Shown: positions 20,139 through 37,524 of the stretch, one piece after another
Layout: every line of letters starts with the position of its first letter
How positions within the stretch are numbered: position 1 is the stretch's first letter
Position numbers and translations under genes: made by a program
Notes under the pieces: model-generated
The model's database searches: none
Seen by the model: only the letters and a program-made list of their open reading frames with translations
Told to the model about the DNA's origin: nothing
Virus record (IMG/VR): IMGVR_UViG_2541047942_000002
Direction: 5' to 3' (one strand)
Source of the DNA: a virus
Taxonomy: Duplodnaviria; Heunggongvirae; Uroviricota; Caudoviricetes
DNA: 39,163 nucleotides

Positions 20139-20408
20139 ATGTTACCGTAATATGTGAGTATCCATCGACTAGACACTAAGCAAAAAAGCTCCCGAAGGAG
20201 CCTTCATTTTCACTTTCTTAAATCTAACGACAGATGGCTAACATTTAAGTATTGTGAAATATTATCAAATGTAATCATCATTGATTTACAAAAGATACAT
20301 TTTGCCCCGAAAGGATTTCTGTCAGAAACATCAAAAGATGATGTTCTATACTGAGAACCATGGCAACACGGGCATCTAAAGTGAATATGGTTTGTAATAT
20401 TTTCTACC

Positions 20409-20621
20409 TCAAAGTGCCACTACATGAACAGCTGCAGGGCCTTTAGGTCCGTTCTCAATACCAAATTCGACTTCCTGATTCTCAGTTAACGTTTTGAAAT
20501 CGTTGCTCTGAATAGCTGAGAAATGCACAAACACATCTTTGCTACCATCTTTCGGCGTGATGAAACCAAAACCTTTTTCAGGGTTAAACCATTTCACTAA
20601 ACCAGTCATTTTGTTAGACAT
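20409..20621 (-). CDS. cspI: cold-shock protein, CspA family
   Basis: 70-aa [45 protein letters not shown]... with RNP1/RNP2 motifs; long AT-rich upstream leader typical of csp genes. Confidence 0.85.
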
Positions 20622-20984
20622 TATTATTACCTTTTGAAGAAGTTAGCCCTTGGGCAGAATGGTCCGAAAAAAAATATCAGAGAGAAAAACCAACAAGGAA
20701 ATCTCAAGAGGTACAAATAATAAAATTATAACAATGACTGCTTCAGATAATTTTGTAACAAACCAGAACACCATTAACGCATGATTAACCAACCATAGCA
20801 AGGATTACTTTTGTAAAGAAAAACACACGAATGAAACAATAGCTTTATTTATTAATAAAACGTGTCATTCTGTCTAATGACCTTTTATCTTACCCTTAAG
20901 ATTTCAAGGATTTTGACTCATGGAAGAGTCCTTTTTATTTAAATTTCACATTCAGCGCTAAAAATAATCCGATTTAATATTAAT

Positions 20985-23073: not shown

Positions 23074-23355
23074 TGAGATTGTGGTGCTTTTTGTGGGAGT
23101 CATCCACTTACGCACTTTGTTTTGCCATGCCAGCAGTTAGCTTCTGCTGTAAAACTATTCATGCAGCAAACCTGCACTTCACCACAATGGTTAGCATACT
23201 TTTCCTGATTAAGATTTTGCCAAATATGCTAGCCATTGTTTCATGTATTGGACCTCCTTACTTTTTATTAAAGAGATCCAATATTCACTACTCTGTCCGT
23301 ATCTCTACTCAGGCATCAGCCTTCTTCGTTATCGTATACAGACGAGCGATGAATT

Positions 23356-23571
23356 TTAATCAGTAATGATGACATTTGCTGCTGCAGGACCTTTAGCACC
23401 ACTCTCTATAGAGAAGGTAACCTTTTGACCTTCAAATAAGGTTCGATAATTATCATTCTGAATCGCAGAAAAATGCACAAACACATCTTTACTACCATCA
23501 ACAGGAGAAATAAAGCCGAAACCTTTATCAGCGTTAAACCATTTTACTAAACCAGTCATTTTATTTGACAT
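23356..23571 (-). CDS. cspB: cold-shock protein, CspA family
   Basis: 71-aa [56 protein letters not shown]...; divergent from cspF as in Qin. Confidence 0.85.
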
Positions 23572-23871
23572 TCTACATTCCTTAACTTGAGCCTTTCGGC
23601 ATAAATGGTTTGCATAACAGAAACGACTTCGTACTTAATTGGAGAGACTCAAAGAAGGAATAAGTGAATAACACCTGAAATGAGAACTGCTTTAGTAAAC
23701 TACTTCGTATATCGTCTGTTCTTCAAACCGACGCAATCATTAACGCATAGTTGAACATATGAAGCAATGTTTATTTTAGACATCCAGCCGTCTTCAACCC
23801 CATCAAAAAACTATAGCTTTCTTCAGGAACGTGTGTATAGTGCGCCAAGTTATCAGTATTAAGGAATTTTT

Positions 23872-27291: not shown

Positions 27292-27362
27292 AGCCTGCTT
27301 CTCCTGTCAACGCAAAGCAGAAGTGTCACCTTCGGTGCGAAACAGAGATGTCATGCTTTGGT

Positions 27363-27650
27363 TCAGAGAATGCGTTTGACCGCCTCGCTATATACTTCCG
27401 AGCGTTCTCTTTTCCCAACAGAAATCACGAAAACGACAACTTTCTCGTCTATAACCTGGTATACAAGGCGATAGCCTGAAGACCGGAGCTTAATCTTGTA
27501 ACAATCAGGCATACCACGGAGCTTGTTTGCTTCAATCCGGGGTGACTCAAGTACTTCAACCAGCTTCTTTTTCAACTGTTCACGTACCGTCGAGCCCAGC
27601 TTTCGCCATTCCTTTAGTGCCCGCTCGTCAAAATCCAGAAAATACGCCAT
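27363..27650 (-). CDS. relE: mRNA interferase toxin RelE
   Basis: 95-aa ORF MAYFLDFDERALKEWRKLGSTVREQLKKKLVEVLESPRIEANKLRGMPDCYKIKLRSSGYRLVYQVIDEKVVVFVISVGKRERSEVY... Confidence 0.95.
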   Translation of the reverse strand: MAYFLDFDERALKEWRKLGSTVREQLKKKLVEVLESPRIEANKLRGMPDCYKIKLRSSGYRLVYQVIDEKVVVFVISVGKRERSEVYSEAVKRIL

Positions 27651-27889
27651 CAGAGTTCATCCAGCGTCACACGTACTGGCTTAGGATTACGAAGCCGTTC
27701 TTTCACTATCTCCACAAGTTCAGCATCTTCATCACTCAGGAGTGTCTGTTTGAACGGCAAGCGTTCATTGTCAGCGATATACTCGAGCATGAGACGAAGC
27801 GCTTCAGAAGGAGTTACACCCATTTTTTCAAGCGCGGCGTAAGAACGCGCTTTAAGTTCATCGTCAATACGCAGGTTAATGCTACCCAT
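27650..27889 (-). CDS. relB: antitoxin RelB
   Basis: 79-aa ORF MGSINLRIDDELKARSYAALEKMGVTPSEALRLMLEYIADNERLPFKQTLLSDEDAELVEIVKERLRNPKPVRVTLDEL; stop overlaps the relE start. Confidence 0.95.
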   Translation of the reverse strand: MGSINLRIDDELKARSYAALEKMGVTPSEALRLMLEYIADNERLPFKQTLLSDEDAELVEIVKERLRNPKPVRVTLDEL

Positions 27890-27894
27890 GTCTT

Positions 27895-27930
27895 ACACCT
27901 ATTGTAATTACAAATGTCATTACAAGTATC
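27895..27930. promoter_or_regulatory. relBE promoter/operator region containing the perfect palindrome TTGTAATTACAA and an adjacent TGTCATTACAA half-site
   Basis: Palindrome read directly at ~27902-27913, 13 nt upstream of the relB start codon. Confidence 0.6.
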
Positions 27931-28219
27931 GCACTACAACATGCTTAGGGCAAGTCACGAAGGAAGTCAGAAAGTAGTCGTAAGAACGGTGATCACTGTC
28001 CGCTTTGTGCCAGGAGCAGCCATTGCTAAGTCCATCCTGTATTGTGCAGGTCAGCTCGTTTTTAAAGAGTCCGGCCATCATCTTACTGGTACAGACACCA
28101 TATACTTTGTGACGGTCAGGCTACATATGCACAACTCAACTTATTCATCTATTTTTTGCTTTAGCATGTCAGTGTTGCTTTCTCGTCGGCGGGTGAGCGG
28201 TGACCTGACCTGTCGATAA
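27914..28219 (+). CDS. ydfV: hypothetical protein (101 aa)
   Basis: ORF-track ORF between relB and flxA; symbol assigned by position and length only; coding potential uncertain. Confidence 0.35.
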   Translation: MSLQVSHYNMLRASHEGSQKVVVRTVITVRFVPGAAIAKSILYCAGQLVFKESGHHLTGTDTIYFVTVRLHMHNSTYSSIFCFSMSVLLSRRRVSGDLTCR

Positions 28220-28371
28220 AGGAACGTAGCACGTTTTATGCAACACCCGCATGCGGCAGAAAATTATTGCCGAACGTTTACCCCTGTCAACAAGCTTTAC
28301 TTTCTGAGGCGCGCCAGCCCGCGAGGAAAACAATCTGAACATCAAACAATTAATGACACAAGAAATACGAT

Positions 28372-28398
28372 TAAAGATTTTTTTGTGCATGCCGATAG
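28372..28398 (+). promoter_or_regulatory. sigma-28 (FliA) class 3 flagellar promoter: TAAAGATT, 11-nt spacer, GCCGATAG
   Basis: Near-consensus match to TAAAGTTT-N11-GCCGATAA read directly, ~25 nt upstream of the flxA ATG. Confidence 0.75.
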
Positions 28399-28421
28399 TG
28401 CTTTTTTAAAAGGAGAAATCT

Positions 28422-28754
28422 ATGTCTGTCACAATTCAGGGAAATACCTCAACCGTTATTTCAAACAACTCCGCCCCGGAAGGAACATCAGAAATAGCCA
28501 AAATCACAAGACAAATTCAGGTGCTGACTGAAAAGCTTGGGAAAATCTCATCGGAAGAGGGGATGACGACACAGCAGAAAAAAGAAATGGCTGCATTGGT
28601 ACAGAAGCAAATTGAAAGCCTCAGGGCTCAACTGGAGCAGTTGTTAAGGCAGCAGGCAGAGAAAAAGAATAAAGACGCGACAGTTCAGCCTGATAAAAAA
28701 GAAGAGAAAAAAGACGATACAAATACCGCTGGCACCATTGATATTTACGTCTAA
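28422..28754 (+). CDS. flxA: FliA-regulated protein FlxA
   Basis: 110-aa ORF MSVTIQGNTSTVISNNSAPEGTSEIAKITRQIQVLTEKLGKISSEEGMTTQQKKEM... Confidence 0.85.
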   Translation: MSVTIQGNTSTVISNNSAPEGTSEIAKITRQIQVLTEKLGKISSEEGMTTQQKKEMAALVQKQIESLRAQLEQLLRQQAEKKNKDATVQPDKKEEKKDDTNTAGTIDIYV

Positions 28755-28768
28755 GTGACAGCCGTATT

Positions 28769-28795
28769 GTGGCCCTCATCGGGCCACTTTTCGCC
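28769..28795 (+). terminator. intrinsic terminator after flxA (GTGGCCC-TCATC-GGGCCAC followed by TTTTCGCC)
   Basis: Perfect 7-bp GC stem directly after the flxA stop. Confidence 0.6.
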
Positions 28796-29190
28796 ATCAG
28801 CCTTTTCTTTAAAGACATATTATCTTTGTATCATTTCTGATAGTTAACATTACAAGATATAAGTAATGGACGCACTCCCAATTAGTCTATTTAAATCGCC
28901 ACGAGTTTAACTGACAACCCATGATCAATTATGAATTGCAACTATTTCTGTAGTCACTTTTGTGGGGACAGTCCACAAAACTGCCAACTTCCGCTTCTTG
29001 CTCTTAGCGGACATTAGCATAGGCTATTTACCATAACGCCTCATTACGCGCACCGCCCAGACTGACTCAGCGCGTTTCTGGCATATCCCCGGTAAAACAA
29101 GTAACAAACCACCCGAAAATGAACACCAGAAACGCGACTTAAGAATCTACCCTATGAATGGATATGCACTCAACCGAATCGATCTTGGTT

Positions 29191-30531
29191 TCAATCTATT
29201 TTATCGGGATCAGGCTTCTTTTTAGGTAACTTCGGGGGCTTAACTTGCTGATGACTTTGCGTTCGGCGCGTAAGCCAGGGATGGTCAGCTTTAGATTTAA
29301 CATAGTATTTTGAGCGTAAATCAATACGGGCATTATCCACTCGTTCATGGACACTCTTTTCATCATCCAGTGGTATAGGCTCCGGGCCATCAACATACTT
29401 TTCCCAGCCCAGCGCTTTCCCGTCATACAGAACGTTAATTTCACCGTCAAAGTTCTCACATACAGTAACAACCGAATGCCTAAGTCGATATCCCCGGCCC
29501 TCACTGCGTACCTGAAACGCACTGCTTTTGTACTGGAAAGTGAGATTTTTAGACAGAACGCGCTTCGCCTGTAGGCTGAAGATATAACCCAGTTCCTCTT
29601 CAGAATGGTGCACATCAAGATGAGCATTATCAGTAGTACGAGGCGACGTAGCGAACCGGTTGTTATAGGCTTCAATAAAGGTCGGCAACCATGCATTTGC
29701 TGTTTCAATATCACTGATATTCTGAAGCCGCATTTCTTTGACCAGCCTGTCCTGTAGTGTCTGATTGGCGCGCTCTACCCGCCCTTTTGCCTGCGGGCTG
29801 TTGGCATGGATTGGCTCGATGCCCTGTGTCTTTATCGCACGAGTGAACTGGGTCAGCTCACCTTCCCGCTCTGGGTTATTTACCCTGAATATACTGTGTC
29901 TATCAGAGTAGAGAGCGAGCGGTACGCCATGATCATTAAGGTAACCCCGGAGGGTTTCCATGTAAGCCCGGGTTGTTTCAGCAGGCACAAAACGCAACGC
30001 CATCAACGCACTGGTGGCATCATCAATGAAAACGATCAGTGTACATCTGGGGCCTCGATTTTCAAACCAGTCATGAGGTGAGCCATCAATCTGGATCAGT
30101 TCACCGTAAGATGGTCGTCGCATGCGGCGTTGATATATACGGGCAATTTTACGACGGCGTTCACGCCATAACCCCTCTTCTATCATCCACTTTCTGAGAG
30201 TTTCAACGGATAAAGATAAACCGTGTATCTCGCGCAATTTTTCGCACGCAAACGTAGGTCCAAAATCAGCGTAACGGCCTTTGAGGAGTGAAATTACTGT
30301 TGCTCTGAATTCAGTAGAAAAGGAATTATTAGGATGCTTTCCACGTCGGTGGGAAACCAGACCAGAAGGCCCTTCATTTCTATACCGTTGCACCAGACGT
30401 TTAACCTGCCGAATAGAAATGCCAATGCGTGCCGCAGCTTGTTCCTGAGTAATATGTCGATTAATTGACTCCTGAATAATCTGAAGTCGGTGGAGTTCCT
30501 TATGACTCATCGTAACAGTCTCTTTGATCAT
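29191..30531 (-). CDS. DDE transposase of the retroviral-integrase (rve) superfamily, IS481/IS21-IstA-like, with N-terminal HTH
   Basis: 446-aa ORF with HTH-like N-terminus and an rve-type catalytic core (QIDGSPHDW ... LALYSDRHSIF ... SPQAKGRVERANQTLQD); element ends not resolved. Confidence 0.8.
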   Translation of the reverse strand: MIKETVTMSHKELHRLQIIQESINRHITQEQAAARIGISIRQVKRLVQRYRNEGPSGLVSHRRGKHPNNSFSTEFRATVISLLKGRYADFGPTFACEKLREIHGLSLSVETLRKWMIEEGLWRERRRKIARIYQRRMRRPSYGELIQIDGSPHDWFENRGPRCTLIVFIDDATSALMALRFVPAETTRAYMETLRGYLNDHGVPLALYSDRHSIFRVNNPEREGELTQFTRAIKTQGIEPIHANSPQAKGRVERANQTLQDRLVKEMRLQNISDIETANAWLPTFIEAYNNRFATSPRTTDNAHLDVHHSEEELGYIFSLQAKRVLSKNLTFQYKSSAFQVRSEGRGYRLRHSVVTVCENFDGEINVLYDGKALGWEKYVDGPEPIPLDDEKSVHERVDNARIDLRSKYYVKSKADHPWLTRRTQSHQQVKPPKLPKKKPDPDKID

Positions 30532-30564
30532 GAAAAATCCCCCAGAGAATTGTCTGGGGACATT

Positions 30565-30984
30565 TTAGAATGGTTCAAAGGGGACATTACAGCTTGGTGT
30601 TAACAATAGCCTGCTTCTCCTTGCCTTCCGGCACTCGCGACAGATTATGTTTAGACGACTGTCGTAGCGACGTATTTCTCCGTCAGGTAATGACCAGATA
30701 AGGTCCGGATCAACCACAGCAGGTTTCTTCACCTTTGCCCTCGAGAGTTTTTTGCGGGCGTTTTGCCAGTCCTTACGCGCCTGTTCAGACGGGAATAACC
30801 CGTAACCAGAGCTGTATACATCGCCACTGGCAACCAGCTCTCTGGCCAGAACGCTCATCAGATATCTTGTTGCCCCAGTTTTAGCTTCCAGTTGTCGTAA
30901 CGTCTCGCGCCCACTCTGGCGTACGAGTTCCACCACCTGCCCTTTAATTTTTTCCCGCTCTTCTTGTGTAAAAACTTTTGCCAC
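30565..30984 (-). CDS. hypothetical prophage early protein (139 aa), possibly altered at its 3' end by the adjacent transposase insertion
   Basis: ORF-track ORF downstream of the replication gene; C-terminal 25 residues are low-complexity and run into the hairpin flanking the transposase gene. Confidence 0.45.
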   Translation of the reverse strand: MAKVFTQEEREKIKGQVVELVRQSGRETLRQLEAKTGATRYLMSVLARELVASGDVYSSGYGLFPSEQARKDWQNARKKLSRAKVKKPAVVDPDLIWSLPDGEIRRYDSRLNIICRECRKARRSRLLLTPSCNVPFEPF

Positions 30985-31024: not shown

Positions 31025-31990
31025 TTATCCCCTGAAACCAGGCGGAATTTCTGTATCCGGTTCAGAAATATGATTCACACAACGCTGTACAGGTGAACGT
31101 CCCAGGCGGATGACCAGTTCGTCCCATTTTTCGCGGAGTTTTGACGGGCTCATGATGTTTTTTACCCAGAATTGATCTCGCTGTACCCGACCAAACATTT
31201 CGCAAATTTGTCTGTGGCTTCTGCCATCCAGCATCCGCATTGTGCGCACGTCATTGGCCCAGGCTGTCCAGTTAGGCTCTTTTGGTCGCATGATCTCTCC
31301 ATCGTCGCTGGCAGCCTGTTCGTAAAGGTTCACGATCCGCCCCCAAATCCACTGCGCACACGCCAAATCCTCCCTGCTACCCCACTGGCGTTTTTTCGCA
31401 CTAAACACAACCGCGTCGGGGTTCCGGGTTAAAAAATCCTGTTCAGCGGTCTGCGGGTCCGGTTGCGAAGCTTCCGGACGAAAAGTGTTTTTATTCTCTG
31501 TAGTAATCTCTGTTGTATTCTCTGTAAGATCATCAGGCCATTTTGACCCGATGACATTGGGTCGTTTTGAACCAATGGAGCGTTTCATTTTGACCTCTTC
31601 CATCGTGTCATTTTGACCTGATGGAGCGGCGCATTTTAAACCGATGGATTCGCTCAATTTGCCACCATCTAAAAGCTCGCTCCCGTAGTTGATCGTGTAG
31701 AAATTGGTCATATCGCGCTTTGATTTATTGAGCTTTTCACAACGCAAAAGCCCCAGCGTTTTCAGACTTGCAAACGCGCGCTTTAACGTTGACTCTGACC
31801 AGAATGGGAACTGTTCCAGCCATTGTTCCGTTGTGTTGTAAATCCAGCGAACACCATCACATTCCATGCCGGAATTGGTATCTCTCAACCAGTAATGCAA
31901 CTGCTGCAACACAATGGCTTCATTTAAGCCAATCTTCATCGCAAGCTGTGTGTTTATAACCAGTGGGCGTTCAGCAAAAAGAAGGCTCAT
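31025..31990 (-). CDS. replication initiator, lambda O-like replisome organiser containing the origin iterons
   Basis: ORF trimmed to internal ATG (MSLLFAERPLVINTQLAMKIGLNEAIVLQQLHYWL...) because the ORF-track start is a TTG overlapping the upstream gene; five ~23-bp iterons inside the coding region. Confidence 0.7.
   Translation of the reverse strand: MSLLFAERPLVINTQLAMKIGLNEAIVLQQLHYWLRDTNSGMECDGVRWIYNTTEQWLEQFPFWSESTLKRAFASLKTLGLLRCEKLNKSKRDMTNFYTINYGSELLDGGKLSESIGLKCAAPSGQNDTMEEVKMKRSIGSKRPNVIGSKWPDDLTENTTEITTENKNTFRPEASQPDPQTAEQDFLTRNPDAVVFSAKKRQWGSREDLACAQWIWGRIVNLYEQAASDDGEIMRPKEPNWTAWANDVRTMRMLDGRSHRQICEMFGRVQRDQFWVKNIMSPSKLREKWDELVIRLGRSPVQRCVNHISEPDTEIPPGFRG
31538..31650. repeat. 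origin-of-replication iteron array: five direct repeats of ~19 bp (CATTTTGACC-type) at ~23-bp periodicity, with an AT-rich/TCTCTGT-repeat region on the low-coordinate side
   Basis: Repeats read directly: CCATTTTGACCCGATGACA, CGTTTTGAACCAATGGAGC, CATTTTGACCTCTTCCATC, CATTTTGACCTGATGGAGC, CATTTTAAACCGATGGATT. Confidence 0.75.
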
Positions 31991-32492
31991 AATTCCATCC
32001 AGCTTTTTGTTGGTATTGCTGTCGATACGCAAGTTTGAAAGCAATTGCTTTTTCTATAAGTTCGTCAGTTTCACGATCCACTACGGCAGGATCAGCAAAA
32101 AGCAGTCCGGACTCCACCACATCGCCATATTCTTTGTTTAACCCGGCGATCATGTACGTGATGCTTTTTCCGTCACTAATTTCACGATACAACCTGAAAT
32201 CATTAATCCGAATAGCCTCCATAATTGCAGGCACTAGCGCCGTGAACTTTTCACGCTTATCCCTGGTGTCGATAGCCTTCCAGCGTTCGAATATCTTCAC
32301 TCGATTAACGCCAAGTGCTCGCTGATCAACCGCGCCACCTTCATCTGTGACACGCTGAACATCGATGTTCGGGCGCTCTTTCAAAGCCCAGAATGCTTCA
32401 GTGATTAATATCGTCGCCTGCTCCTGTGTCATTCCTGGTCGACATATCCAGGCATCCAGAGCCTCACGAGCCTGTTCAGGAGTGATTTTCAT
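31971..32492 (-). CDS. hypothetical early protein (173 aa) immediately downstream of the cro-like dicC
   Basis: ORF-track ORF MKITPEQAREALDAWICRPGMTQEQATILITEAFWALK...; start overlaps the dicC stop; no recognised function. Confidence 0.55.
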   Translation of the reverse strand: MKITPEQAREALDAWICRPGMTQEQATILITEAFWALKERPNIDVQRVTDEGGAVDQRALGVNRVKIFERWKAIDTRDKREKFTALVPAIMEAIRINDFRLYREISDGKSITYMIAGLNKEYGDVVESGLLFADPAVVDRETDELIEKAIAFKLAYRQQYQQKAGWNYEPSFC

Positions 32493-32706
32493 TGTTCAAC
32501 CGCCCCGCCCGCTTCGTCTTACGATATTCATCATAAACTTTGGGATCATACTGAAGCTCCCCGCCAGATGCCTCCTGTAGACGCATCGCGCGACCTTCGG
32601 GAACTAAATCCCCTTTCCAGCTATAAAGCGAAGCCAAACGAATACCTGCTGCTTGTGCAAGTTTTGTTTTTGAACCGAAATACAAAAGAGCGTCAGTTTT
32701 AAGCAT
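32476..32706 (-). CDS. dicC: Cro-like repressor DicC
   Basis: 76-aa ORF MLKTDALLYFGSKTKLAQAAGIRLASLYSWKGDLVPEGRAMRLQEASGGELQYDPKVYDEYRKTKRAGRLNNENHS; divergent from dicA. Confidence 0.9.
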   Translation of the reverse strand: MLKTDALLYFGSKTKLAQAAGIRLASLYSWKGDLVPEGRAMRLQEASGGELQYDPKVYDEYRKTKRAGRLNNENHS

Positions 32707-32789
32707 TTAAAACATCTATCTTGTTAGTCATAACTAACAAGATAGATGTTAACAAAAACATAGTCAATACGATTTAGCATTAGCTAACT
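32707..32789. promoter_or_regulatory. dicA-dicC divergent promoter/operator region with a ~38-bp near-perfect palindrome (ACATCTATCTTGTTAGT-CATA-ACTAACAAGATAGATGT)
   Basis: 17-bp inverted arms read directly at ~32711-32748; a second shorter TTAGC...GCTAA dyad lies closer to dicA. Confidence 0.7.
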
Positions 32790-33197
32790 ATGGAAACAAA
32801 AAATTTAACTATCGGCGAACGCATCAGGTATCGTCGGAAAAACCTCAAACACACCCAAAGGTCTCTTGCTAAAGCCCTGAAAATCTCCCATGTGTCTGTA
32901 TCACAATGGGAACGGGGTGATAGTGAACCTACAGGGAAGAACCTTTTTGCCCTCAGCAAAGTATTGCAATGCTCACCAACATGGATTCTATTTGGCGATG
33001 AAGACAAGCAACCAACACCACCTGTTGAGAAGCCAGTTGCCTTATCCCCCAAAGAACTAGAGCTCCTTGAGCTGTTTAATGCACTGCCAGAATCAGAACA
33101 GGATACCCAGCTCGCCGAAATGCGAGCTCGAGTAAAAAACTTCAATAAACTCTTTGAAGAATTACTAAAAGCCCGTCAGCGGACAAATAAAAGATAA
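32790..33197 (+). CDS. dicA: cI-like HTH repressor DicA
   Basis: 135-aa ORF METKNLTIGERIRYRRKNLKHTQRSLAKALKISHVSVSQWERGDSEPTGKNLFALSKVLQCSPTWILFG... with XRE-type HTH. Confidence 0.9.
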   Translation: METKNLTIGERIRYRRKNLKHTQRSLAKALKISHVSVSQWERGDSEPTGKNLFALSKVLQCSPTWILFGDEDKQPTPPVEKPVALSPKELELLELFNALPESEQDTQLAEMRARVKNFNKLFEELLKARQRTNKR

Positions 33198-34355: not shown

Positions 34356-34413
34356 TTTCTGGTGACGTTTGGCGGTATCAGTTTTACTCCGTGACTGCTC
34401 TGCCGCCCTTTTT
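34356..34413 (+). ncRNA. dicF: DicF small regulatory RNA (ftsZ-targeting) with its intrinsic terminator
   Basis: Sequence TTTCTGGTGACGTTTGGCGGTATCAGTTTTACTCCGTGACTGCTCTGCCGCCCTTTTT matches DicF as I recall it; GGCGG...CCGCC stem plus U-tract; located between the ydfB/C-like ORF and dicB. Confidence 0.8.
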
Positions 34414-35052: not shown

Positions 35053-37524
35053 ATGAGTAAAGTCTTTATTTGCGCCGCTATTCCTGACGAACTGGCAACA
35101 AGGGAAGAAGGCGCTGTGGCTGTAGCCACAGCCATTGAAGCTGGCGACGAACGCCGTGCTCGAGCAAAATTTCACTGGCAGTTCCTGGAACATTATCCGG
35201 CTGCTCAGGACTGCGCTTATAAATTTATTGTCTGCGAGGATAAACCTGGCATACCCCGCCCTGCCCTCGATTCATGGGATGCTGAATATATGCAGGAAAA
35301 CCGCTGGGATGAGGAGTCTGCTTCTTTTGTCCCGGTTGAGACTGAATCCGATCCGATGAACGTCACTTTTGACAAGCTGGCCCCTGAAGTACAGAACGCT
35401 GTCATGGTTAAGTTCGACACATGTGAAAACATCACCGTTGATATGGTTATTAGCGCACAGGAATTGTTGCAGGAAGACATGGCAACATTCGACGGACATA
35501 TCGTTGAAGCGTTGATGAAAATGCCAGAAGTTAACGCCATGTATCCGGAGCTTAAGTTGCACGCCATTGGGTGGGTTAAGCATAAATGTATTCCTGGTGC
35601 TAAATGGCCCGAAATTCAGGCAGAGATGCGCATCTGGAAAAAACGTCGCGAAGGTGAACGCAAGGAAACCGGAAAATACACGTCTGTTGTTGATCTCGCC
35701 CGCGCCAGAGCCAATCAACAGTACACTGAAAATTCAACAGGAAAAATCAGCCCGGTCATTGCTGCCATTCATCGCGAATACAAGCAGACATGGAAAACAC
35801 TGGATGACGAACTGGCCTACGCTCTCTGGCCTGGTGATGTGGATGCCGGAAACATTGACGGCAGCATCCATCGCTGGGCAAAAAAAGAAGTTATCGACAA
35901 CGACCGCGAAGACTGGAAGCGTATCTCGGCATCAATGCGCAAACAGCCTGATGCCCTTCGCTACGACCGCCAAACTATTTTTGGCCTTGTCCGTGAGCGT
36001 CCGATCGACATTCACAAAGATCCCGTAGCACTGAACAAATATATCTGCGAATACCTGACGACAAAGGGCGTGTTTGAGAATGAAGAAACAGACCTGGGCA
36101 CTGTTGATGTTCTCCAGTCATCAGAAACACAAACTGATGCAGTGGAAACTGAGGTATCTGATATCCCAAAAAATGAAACCGCGCCGGAAGCTGAACCATC
36201 TGTAGAGCGTGAGGGGCCGTTCTATTTCCTCTTCGCAGATAAGGACGGAGAAAAATACGGTCGCGCAAACAAACTTTCTGGTCTGGATAAGGCACTGGCT
36301 GCTGGCGCCACTGAAATCACAAAAGAAGAATATTTTGCCCGAAAAAATGGCACATACACGGGCTTACCGCAAAATGTAGATACCGCTGAAGATTCAGAAC
36401 AACCAGAGCCGATAAAAGTTACCGCTGACGAAGTAAACAAAATTATGCAGGCAGCCAATATCAGCCAGCCTGACGCCGATAAGTTGCTTGCTGCATCACG
36501 TGGTGAATTTGTTGAAGGGATTAGTGACCCGAATGATCCGAAATGGGTTAAGGGGATCCAGACCCGCGATTCTGTGAACCAGAACCAGCATGAATCGGAA
36601 CGGAACTACCAAAAAGCGGAACAAAACAGTCCAAATGCGTTACAAAACGAGCCAGAAACGAAACAGCCTGAACCAGTGGCGCAACAGGAAGTGGAAAAAG
36701 CCTGCACCGCCTGCGGTCAGACCGGCGGCGGCAACTGCCCTGATTGTGGCGCGGTGATGGGCGACGCAACATACCAAGAAACATTCGATGAAGAGTATCA
36801 GGTTGAAGTTCAGGAAGATGATCCGGAGGAAATGGAAGGCGCTGAACATCCACACAAGGAGAACACTGGCGGCAATCAGCATCACAATAGCGATAATGAA
36901 ACTGGCGAGACGGCAGATCACCCAATTAAGGTGAACGGTCATCACGAAATCACATCCACCAGCAGGACGTGTGACCATCTAATGATCGACCTTGAAACCA
37001 TGGGAAAAAATCCTGATGCCCCGATCATCTCAATAGGTGCAATATTTTTCGATCCGCAAACCGGAGATATGGGACCGGAATTTAGTAAGACTATCGATCT
37101 GGAAACTGCTGGCGGAGTCATTGATCGGGACACCATTAAATGGTGGCTTAAGCAATCACGCGAAGCGCAATCTGCCATTATGACCGATGAAATCCCGTTA
37201 GATGATGCACTGTTACAATTGCGGGAATTTATCGACGAAAACTCCGGTGAATTTTTTGTTCAGGTTTGGGGAAATGGAGCCAACTTCGACAACACGATTT
37301 TGCGCCGTTCATACGAACGGCAGGGGATCCCCTGCCCGTGGCGTTACTACAACGATCGCGATGTACGCACAATCGTTGAGCTGGGGAAAGCCATAGACTT
37401 CGATGCCAGAACGGCTATTCCATTCGAAGGTGAGCGCCATAATGCACTTGATGACGCCCGTTACCAGGCAAAATACGTTTCAGTTATCTGGCAAAAACTG
37501 ATCCCGAGTCAGGCTGATTCTTAA
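35053..37524 (+). CDS. ydfE: full-length YdfE-like multidomain protein: N-terminal region of unknown function, central CxxC...CxxC zinc ribbon, C-terminal DEDDh (DnaQ-like) 3'-5' exonuclease domain
   Basis: 823-aa ATG-initiated ORF; C-terminal motifs Exo I MIDLETMG, Exo II WGNGANFDNTIL, Exo III ERHNALDDARYQAKY; zinc ribbon CTACGQTGGGNCPDCG; located between ydfD and xis. Confidence 0.8.
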   Translation: MSKVFICAAIPDELATREEGAVAVATAIEAGDERRARAKFHWQFLEHYPAAQDCAYKFIVCEDKPGIPRPALDSWDAEYMQENRWDEESASFVPVETESDPMNVTFDKLAPEVQNAVMVKFDTCENITVDMVISAQELLQEDMATFDGHIVEALMKMPEVNAMYPELKLHAIGWVKHKCIPGAKWPEIQAEMRIWKKRREGERKETGKYTSVVDLARARANQQYTENSTGKISPVIAAIHREYKQTWKTLDDELAYALWPGDVDAGNIDGSIHRWAKKEVIDNDREDWKRISASMRKQPDALRYDRQTIFGLVRERPIDIHKDPVALNKYICEYLTTKGVFENEETDLGTVDVLQSSETQTDAVETEVSDIPKNETAPEAEPSVEREGPFYFLFADKDGEKYGRANKLSGLDKALAAGATEITKEEYFARKNGTYTGLPQNVDTAEDSEQPEPIKVTADEVNKIMQAANISQPDADKLLAASRGEFVEGISDPNDPKWVKGIQTRDSVNQNQHESERNYQKAEQNSPNALQNEPETKQPEPVAQQEVEKACTACGQTGGGNCPDCGAVMGDATYQETFDEEYQVEVQEDDPEEMEGAEHPHKENTGGNQHHNSDNETGETADHPIKVNGHHEITSTSRTCDHLMIDLETMGKNPDAPIISIGAIFFDPQTGDMGPEFSKTIDLETAGGVIDRDTIKWWLKQSREAQSAIMTDEIPLDDALLQLREFIDENSGEFFVQVWGNGANFDNTILRRSYERQGIPCPWRYYNDRDVRTIVELGKAIDFDARTAIPFEGERHNALDDARYQAKYVSVIWQKLIPSQADS

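Follow-up and report, generated by a model that had tools for sequence, protein, structure and literature searches.

In phage lambda and the Stx phages, the binding of O protein to iterons, the bending of the iteron DNA and the need of an AT-rich tract for unwinding have been established by experiment (PMC7466680). Lambda has four annotated iterons inside its O gene, at gene nt 349–433, followed by ACACAAAAGACACTATTACAAAAGAAAAAAG, and the Stx phages P27 and 933W have a six-iteron variant of ori-lambda. Four gp15-binding sites of the GGGAAAA type are annotated inside gene 15 of phi80, with an A-rich stretch after them; P22 has an annotated rep_origin inside gene 18, with four TCGGTAAAAC-type repeats and then an A-rich stretch containing ACAAAAGACAATA twice. 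Here we describe an element of this kind in the virus record IMGVR_UViG_2541047942_000002 (Caudoviricetes), a stretch of 39,163 nucleotides that we call the window. Positions 31485–31646, possibly extending to 31669, lie inside a replication initiator gene and hold an iteron array followed by an A-rich element; by analogy with the described systems they very probably make up the origin from which a lambdoid temperate phage starts vegetative replication, one that would work in the manner of lambda.

The layout is the already known lambda-type origin design, and the element is a further member with a different DNA-binding domain and different iterons. Position in the gene and the A-rich repeat stretch that follows match in lambda, phi80 and P22 alike, and the repeats of P22 and phi80 are also mid-gene with ∼21–24-bp spacing. 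The likeness to lambda goes further: the iterons have internal dyad symmetry and a central A-tract, and begin ∼350 nt into the gene (349 in lambda, 345 here); they are spaced 20–24 bp apart; the A-rich stretch comes next in the direction of transcription; and the strand asymmetry is the same. By contrast, lambda has four 18-bp iterons, where we find five (possibly six) of 23 bp and unrelated sequence, and lambda has one CAGAGAAT, where we find an ordered array of ACAGAGAnTACn 12-mers. The present initiator further differs in an N-terminal domain (N-domain) that is not Phage_rep_O, in the absence of a P gene, and in an extra DnaT-like tail. P22 and phi80 differ from the present phage in iteron sequences, N-domains and partner proteins; P22 encodes a DnaB-type helicase (gene 12) and phi80 a P-like protein (gp14), neither of which is encoded here. 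A likeness to ori-lambda had been proposed from the sequence of the window, and phased dyad iterons, a position between the coding regions of two domains and an adjacent downstream A-rich stretch were all found. Because every sequence-level feature of a lambda-type origin is thus present, the reading as an origin is supported.

The initiator gene and its internal repeats

The initiator gene occupies 31025–31990 on the minus strand (966 nt; 321 amino acids from the ATG at 31990); a longer, TTG-started open reading frame (ORF) reaches 32044. The same 966-nt coding sequence is annotated in Escherichia phage mEp460_ev081, with 99.8% identity over the gene, and in phage HannyBb, with 97.7%. HannyBb is the complete genome of an isolate, a lambdoid siphovirus isolated on E. 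coli, and carries the module at that same 97.7% identity. The protein matched PHROG 391, 'replication initiation O-like' (E 4.5e-93, residues 17–321 against profile positions 11–298 of 298), had no Pfam match at E up to 0.01, and was assigned no NCBIfam family; lambda O, our positive control, matched PF04492 (Phage_rep_O) with E 5.7e-36. In E. coli the NCBI label is 'hypothetical protein' throughout and the RAST label 'Primosomal protein I'; only PHROG-based annotation gives 'O-like'. We rejected the identity with DnaT that the RAST name in mEp460 records implies: NCBIfam NF002770 scored 16.3 bits against a cut-off of 201, and only residues 302–321 aligned. Judged by this comparison, 'Primosomal protein I' is a misnomer for the initiator.

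An AlphaFold model built from 15 homologues (mean predicted local distance difference test, pLDDT, 57) suggests two domains and a linker. The N-domain (codons 1–108; 31667–31990, minus strand) appears winged-helix-like and is the presumed iteron-binding module; it was modelled as H-H-E-E-H-H-E-E over residues 14–100, with block pLDDT of ∼52–75. Residues 108–175 were modelled without secondary structure, at pLDDT <50, and the iterons and ACAGAGA units are encoded wholly within this linker. The model continues with a helical domain at residues 183–295 and a floppy tail. This helical C-terminal domain (C-domain; codons 180–297; 31100–31453, minus strand) is a homologue of the lambda O C-domain (BLASTP E 3e-28, with 34% identity across 148 amino acids). 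The earlier description of the protein as an O-like initiator therefore holds for the C-domain, but not for the N-domain, which is not Phage_rep_O, nor for the operon, which has no P-like partner gene.

A hidden Markov model of the N-domain found no match among PDB sequences. The top Foldseek matches to the modelled N-domain were plasmid Rep N-domains (5kbj, 4pql and 4pt7), all non-significant (E 0.06–0.2; TM-score ∼0.45 on target). These best structural matches are RepA_N-type plasmid initiators, in which a winged-helix N-domain binds iterons; they share no sequence similarity with the present protein, and belong to replicons of Gram-positive plasmids rather than to phage. The iterons of RepA_N-type plasmids also lie inside the rep gene.

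A repeat search (23- and 37-nt families) found five 23-bp repeats at 31531–31646, occupying codons 115–154 of 321, the first starting at gene nt 345. Start-to-start spacings are 23, 23, 23 and 24 bp, and the consensus, CATCGGGTCAAAATGACCCGATG, is a perfect 10-3-10 palindrome. All copies read on the minus strand. Iteron 1 (31624–31646, CATCGGTTTAAAATGCGCCGCTC) has a good left half-site and arm complementarity of 5/10; iterons 2 (31601–31623, CATCAGGTCAAAATGACACGATG) and 4 (31555–31577, CATTGGTTCAAAACGACCCAATG) are palindromic at 8/10, as is iteron 5 (31531–31553, CATCGGGTCAAAATGGCCTGATG), the copy nearest the AT-rich part; iteron 3 (31578–31600, GAAGAGGTCAAAATGAAACGCTC) retains the core only, at 5/10. 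What iterons 1 and 3 retain is chiefly the left arm and the A-tract, which places them closer to half-sites. Three copies contain the core CATTTTGACC exactly, at 31539, 31586 and 31609, and the other two have the variants CGTTTTGAACC and CATTTTAAACC. A possible weak sixth iteron (GATGGTGGCAAATTGAGCGAATC, 31647–31669, minus strand) lies in the 23-bp register and agrees with the consensus at 14/23 positions, counted by eye; relatives have a clearer copy, GAGGTCAAAGTGA, at this position.

These measurements largely bear out the original prediction, which had five direct repeats at 31538–31650. The place was right, although the array starts at 31531 and the unit is 23 rather than ∼19 bp; the core said to recur in all five is exact in three copies and variant in two. 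The predicted ∼23-bp spacing agrees with the spacings measured, and the repeats do lie inside an O-like initiator gene, namely the ORF assigned to PHROG 391.

The array stands out from the rest of the window. A degenerate 23-mer with up to three mismatches had two matches, at the array, and none in 100 shuffles. Self-similarity over the 116 bp of the array was 0.55 at lag 23 and 0.54 at lag 46, against ∼0.25 at other lags, giving array segments the top lag-self-similarity score among 3905 segments of the 39 kb. The 10-mer core alone, with one mismatch allowed, was not significant window-wide (7 found against 3.8 expected); all three exact copies fall within the array. Scans with the core and with the 23-mer pattern revealed no second iteron cluster in the 39-kb window. 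Tandem Repeats Finder (TRF) reported only the 12-bp repeat described below, not the 23-bp iterons, for which we used repeat search and autocorrelation.

The iterons and ACAGAGA repeats are under selection at the DNA level. First bases of the five iterons fall in codon phases 3, 2, 1, 3 and 3, and the encoded peptides differ (SIGLKCAAP, PSGQNDTM, EEVKMKRS, SIGSKRPNV and VIGSKWPDD); with a 23-bp period and copies in all three codon phases, this is therefore not a peptide repeat. We compared codon use between the iteron plus ACAGAGA part and the N-domain at those positions where the amino acid is unchanged. Against Klebsiella phage ST147-VIM1phi7.2 the same codon was used at 34/36 positions in the former and 35/76 in the latter (Fisher p 2e-7); against mEp460_4F5 the counts were 33/36 and 43/76 (Fisher p 1e-4). 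A recently exchanged patch is not the explanation, because amino acids are conserved no better in the iteron part (28/40 identical) than in the N-domain (82/108).

Immediately downstream of iteron 5 in the direction of transcription lies an A-rich, easily melted element (31485–31530, minus strand, ATCTTACAGAGAATACAACAGAGATTACTACAGAGAATAAAAACAC), the presumed site of unwinding and helicase entry. Adenine accounts for 24 of the 46 nt of its sense strand, and the element contains three ACAGAGAnTACn 12-mers, at 31514–31525, 31502–31513 and 31490–31501 (codons 155–166), which TRF reported as a 12-bp unit in 2.7 copies at 31495–31526. GC content is 0.275 at 31480–31519, and 31485–31530 is the least stable DNA of the gene, among the lowest 1.3–1.6% of segments in the 39 kb. 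An AT-rich repeat stretch downstream of the iterons, as predicted, is thus confirmed. Within the 12-mers, nt 1–7 and 9–11 are fixed and nt 8 is free, such that the third codon is AAT, ATT, ACT or AGT, encoding N, I, T or S. Read codon by codon, this pattern of variation is not one expected from peptide constraint. In Bacillus phage TP21-L, one ACAGAGAATAC copy is read in a different frame.

We considered two other kinds of origin element. No DnaA boxes were found near the origin; the single match to TTWTNCACA, at 30973, is outside the gene. In ori-lambda a GC-rich inverted repeat follows the AT-rich part. We found one of this type, GTCCGGAAGC-TTC-GCAACCGGAC when read on the sense strand, at 31457–31479, ∼10 bp past the AT-rich part, and in the same place in Klebsiella and Pantoea relatives despite their different C-domains. 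It was rejected as a third origin element: 107 of 300 shuffles did as well, and distant relatives do not have it.

Relatives, subgroups and mosaics

A search for related loci by N-domain alignment returned 80 loci, all ∼100% identical and without divergence; we replaced it by tblastn on phage records and by a scan with a DNA pattern. The tblastn search with the N-domain found homologues in 155 phage records, from many host phyla. Ten initiators were picked by N-domain protein similarity alone, from phages of Escherichia (two types), Klebsiella (two), Pantoea, Erwinia and Pseudomonas (two), together with Staphylococcus phage 96 and Bacillus phage TP21-L. All ten have iteron-type repeats at gene nt ∼320–450, and those with several copies space them ∼23 bp apart; in Pseudomonas phage AF just one or two iterons are recognisable. 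The cores are related yet distinct (GGTCAAAATGACC, GGGCAAATTGCCC, GGACAAAATGGCC and TGTCAAAATGAAT). After the iterons come two to four ACAGAGA units in nine of the ten, and one clear unit in Staphylococcus phage 96. Lack of conservation in homologous genes would have counted against the prediction; instead, the repeats occupy the same gene position in every relative examined, and their sequence varies in step with the N-domain.

Scanning IMG/VR with the pattern ACAGAGAWTACWACAGAGA gave 120 loci, at 117 of which an initiator-like ORF of ∼320 amino acids contains the motif, always in one codon phase. The largest cluster comprises 82 distinct sequences, which a 70% identity threshold divides into 26 N-domain subgroups. 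In nearly every subgroup, four or five repeats particular to it lie just upstream of the common ACAGAGA element, with a ∼23-bp period; examples are GGGGAAACCC (the Stx-phage type), ATGCGGAAAACCAGCAAAC, GTTAAGAAACTTAACAATGG and GAGTGAAATTCAC.

The ACAGAGA array occurs behind dozens of otherwise unrelated initiator and iteron types, in phages of both Gram-negative and Gram-positive hosts. The A-rich stretch is near-identical in Klebsiella and Pantoea phages and in an Stx phage whose N-domain is unrelated at BLAST level; the 'O' protein gene of an Stx1 phage shares only a 40-bp ACAGAGA stretch, at 97.5% identity. Mosaics show where the parts are joined. One, from Klebsiella, has the same N-domain, iterons and ACAGAGA element with a C-domain of the Phg_2220_C type; another, P0112, has a different N-domain and repeat segment with the same ACAGAGA element and C-domain. 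On this comparison, the N-domain and iterons act as one swappable specificity cassette, joined at a shared, putative unwinding element to interchangeable C-domains. Inheritance of N-domain and iterons as one block is as expected if the N-domain binds the iterons.

We found no mention of the ACAGAGA 12-mers in the literature searched. The ACAGAGAnTACn array may be a sequence-specific signal for unwinding or helicase entry, beyond mere AT-rich DNA. If so, its reader should be something common to all types, either a host replication protein or a conserved single-stranded-DNA-binding activity of the initiator.

Of 5426 complete E. coli genomes, 1996 (37%) contain the 281-bp origin segment, in a gene labelled 'hypothetical protein'. 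Recognising this segment locates the predicted origin and the initiator in prophages of a very common type, and yields a simple rule for finding phage origins: an N-domain, then ∼23-bp iterons, then ACAGAGA repeats. To phage-replication specialists the origin type is unsurprising; the ACAGAGA array and the DnaT-like tail are newer, and partly established.

Possible helicase recruitment, proposed mechanism and alternatives

Lambda O recruits P-DnaB. In the present phage no P-type loader gene is directly downstream of the initiator, the next gene being of the DUF977/'Ren-like' type; no loader or helicase is annotated in the early operons of relatives, and the complete HannyBb genome has no annotated helicase, loader or primase gene. 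The initiator does have a DnaT-like C-terminal tail (codons 301–321; 31028–31090, minus strand; VQRCVNHISEPDTEIPPGFRG). Searched against PDB with phmmer, it matched the DnaT chains 2ru8, 6aep and 9zbt over their last 21 residues (E 0.014–0.043). It is these last 21 residues of E. coli DnaT that resemble the tail; no other part matches. The ending SEPDTEIPPGFRG, of the form ...IP(P/A)GFR(G/S), is also found on initiators with three other types of C-domain.

We surveyed the tail among 104 complete ACAGAGA-class initiators from IMG/VR. Where the next gene encodes a DnaC-like loader, a DnaB-like helicase or a P-like loader, only 1 of 31 initiators has the tail; where it encodes a transcriptional-activator-like protein, DUF977 or Dam, 35 of 37 have it (Fisher p 8e-16, a value inflated by the non-independence of the loci). 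These counts support a replacement of the phage loader by the tail, which in phages of enterobacteria could plug the origin complex into the host machinery for replication restart or for DnaB-DnaC loading. Preprimosome structures of 2026 have the DnaT C-terminal domain docking on PriA and leave DnaB-DnaC recruitment open; the extreme DnaT tail and its partner are not described there (PMC13377028). In the literature searched we found no mention of 'initiator-solo' modules, and the origin of mEp460 is not discussed in papers that name this phage. With the loader-less, DnaT-tailed variants it should be possible to test P-independent helicase recruitment, and perhaps to find the partner of the DnaT tail.

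The events at the origin might run as follows. Early rightward transcription (on the minus strand here) would lead to expression of the 321-residue initiator. Its N-terminal winged-helix domain, probably as dimers, would bind the palindromic 23-bp iterons in the part of its own gene that encodes the linker. The phased array of bound protein would distort the DNA, promoting melting of the adjacent A-rich ACAGAGA element, and the C-terminal part of the initiator would then recruit the host replicative helicase. Because the phage encodes no P, DnaC-like or DnaB-like protein, we propose that the DnaT-like tail attaches the initiator to the helicase-loading machinery of the host through a DnaT partner, for example PriA or DnaB-DnaC. 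What we infer here, as distinct from the anatomy and its conservation, is that the initiator binds the iterons, that the DNA unwinds, that replication fires at this site and that the tail plays this part. A combined proposal, in which the ACAGAGA array is a specific signal and the DnaT-like tail links a loader-less origin complex to host machinery, is a tentative one that we hold to be rather unlikely as a whole.

Several points weigh against the locus being an origin of this kind. Binding by the initiator and firing of the origin are argued by analogy. The fold of the N-domain rests on a model of medium to low confidence and on non-significant Foldseek matches (E at least 0.06), and its sequence has no similarity to the N-domain of lambda O, whether by Pfam or by hhalign against residues 1–120 (probability 0.1%). 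Two of the five iterons, 1 and 3, are poor palindromes. The IMG/VR set was gathered by the ACAGAGA pattern itself, which biases it for the element, and it holds many close relatives; it therefore says little on how universal ACAGAGA is. Finally, RNA of the sense strand at 31480–31670 folds better than 200 of 200 shuffles (z −3.16).

This last result bears on a role for the palindromes in the initiator mRNA, as hairpins that slow translation, set stability or pause transcription. Iterons 2, 4 and 5 do form hairpins, and both arm mismatches of iteron 5 become G-U pairs in RNA (by eye). However, hairpins arise automatically from any palindromic site for a protein; the mismatches of iterons 2 and 4 are not wobble pairs, and the core and the 23-bp register are retained in iterons 1 and 3 even though these cannot fold. 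Nor do hairpins require the strict 23-bp phasing or the co-variation with N-domain type, and we regard an RNA function as a very improbable account of the array. The repeats might also reflect nothing more than a protein linker of repetitive, low-complexity sequence, without any role at the DNA level: the segment encodes a linker predicted to be disordered and the ACAGAGA units are in frame, encoding T-E-x-T repeats. Yet the period of 23 bp cannot be divided by three, and the five copies spread over three phases and give different peptides; synonymous sites show much stronger conservation than those of the folded N-domain, with no corresponding rise in amino-acid identity; and the third codon of the 12-mer changes its residue (N, I, T, S) yet keeps its first and third nt. 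The frame and synonymous-site results contradict this by-product reading, to which we give a probability close to negligible.

Binding sites need not be origins. The repeats could serve the initiator or another regulator in autoregulation, copy control or exclusion, with the true origin elsewhere: in many iteron replicons the same contacts between protein and iterons repress or handcuff, and our computed results do not separate a binding site from an origin. Against this, the downstream neighbour of the repeats is in all cases the least stable, A-rich element, their layout is that of the annotated origins of lambda, phi80 and P22, and the 39-kb window offers no second cluster of iterons. We consider purely regulatory sites unlikely; a dual role, regulatory as well as replicative, is compatible with the lambda-style origin that we favour.

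Operon context and other features of the window

Gene content and order around the initiator gene are those of a standard lambdoid early-right operon, here on the minus strand. The repressor gene, cI-like and divergent (32790–33197, plus strand), is followed on the minus strand by a P22-Cro-like gene (32476–32706), a YdaT/'CII-like' gene (31971–32492), the initiator gene, and the DUF977/'Ren-like' gene (30565–30984). A pR-like match to a sigma-70 promoter (TTGACT-17-TATCTT; 32739–32767, minus strand) precedes the cro-like, YdaT/CII-like and initiator genes; it matches by consensus only, such matches being fewer in the region than in shuffles. Predicted transcription from it would cross the origin, and the gene order is compatible with this.

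The YdaT-toxin-like/'CII-like' gene overlaps the ATG start of the initiator gene by 20 nt (31971–31990), which suggests translational coupling. In some database proteins of 448 amino acids (P0002–P0004) these two ORFs are fused.

Downstream of the initiator gene, ∼3.3 kb (∼27305–30625) is absent from HannyBb and holds a transposase ORF of 446 amino acids (29191–30531, minus strand), with HTH and rve_3 domains and a weak match to the IS481 leucine zipper. Similarity to HannyBb ends at 30625, within the DUF977/'Ren-like' gene; the last ∼20 codons of this gene are unlike those of intact copies, and the insertion seems to have replaced its 3′ end. Phage mEp460_ev081 has a similarly sized ORF in the corresponding region, on the opposite strand.

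The periodic signal that ranked second in the window, at ∼36540–36700, has a lag of 21 nt (0.59) and is A/C-rich with a seven-codon period. It is in-frame coding periodicity, unrelated to the origin, in a region matching a large 'exonuclease' gene of HannyBb; the repeat search reported no repeat there.

Two kinds of structured RNA were also noted. The antisense RNA DicF (Rfam) matched at 34357–34408 on the plus strand with 76.7 bits (gathering score 48), which fits the dicB-type cell-division-inhibition genes annotated in related phages. The 5′ untranslated region of the cspA thermoregulator gave two full-length matches on the minus strand, at 20363–20768 (110.6 bits) and 23340–23732 (158.8 bits), and the phage therefore appears to carry two genes of the cold-shock-protein type with RNA thermometers.

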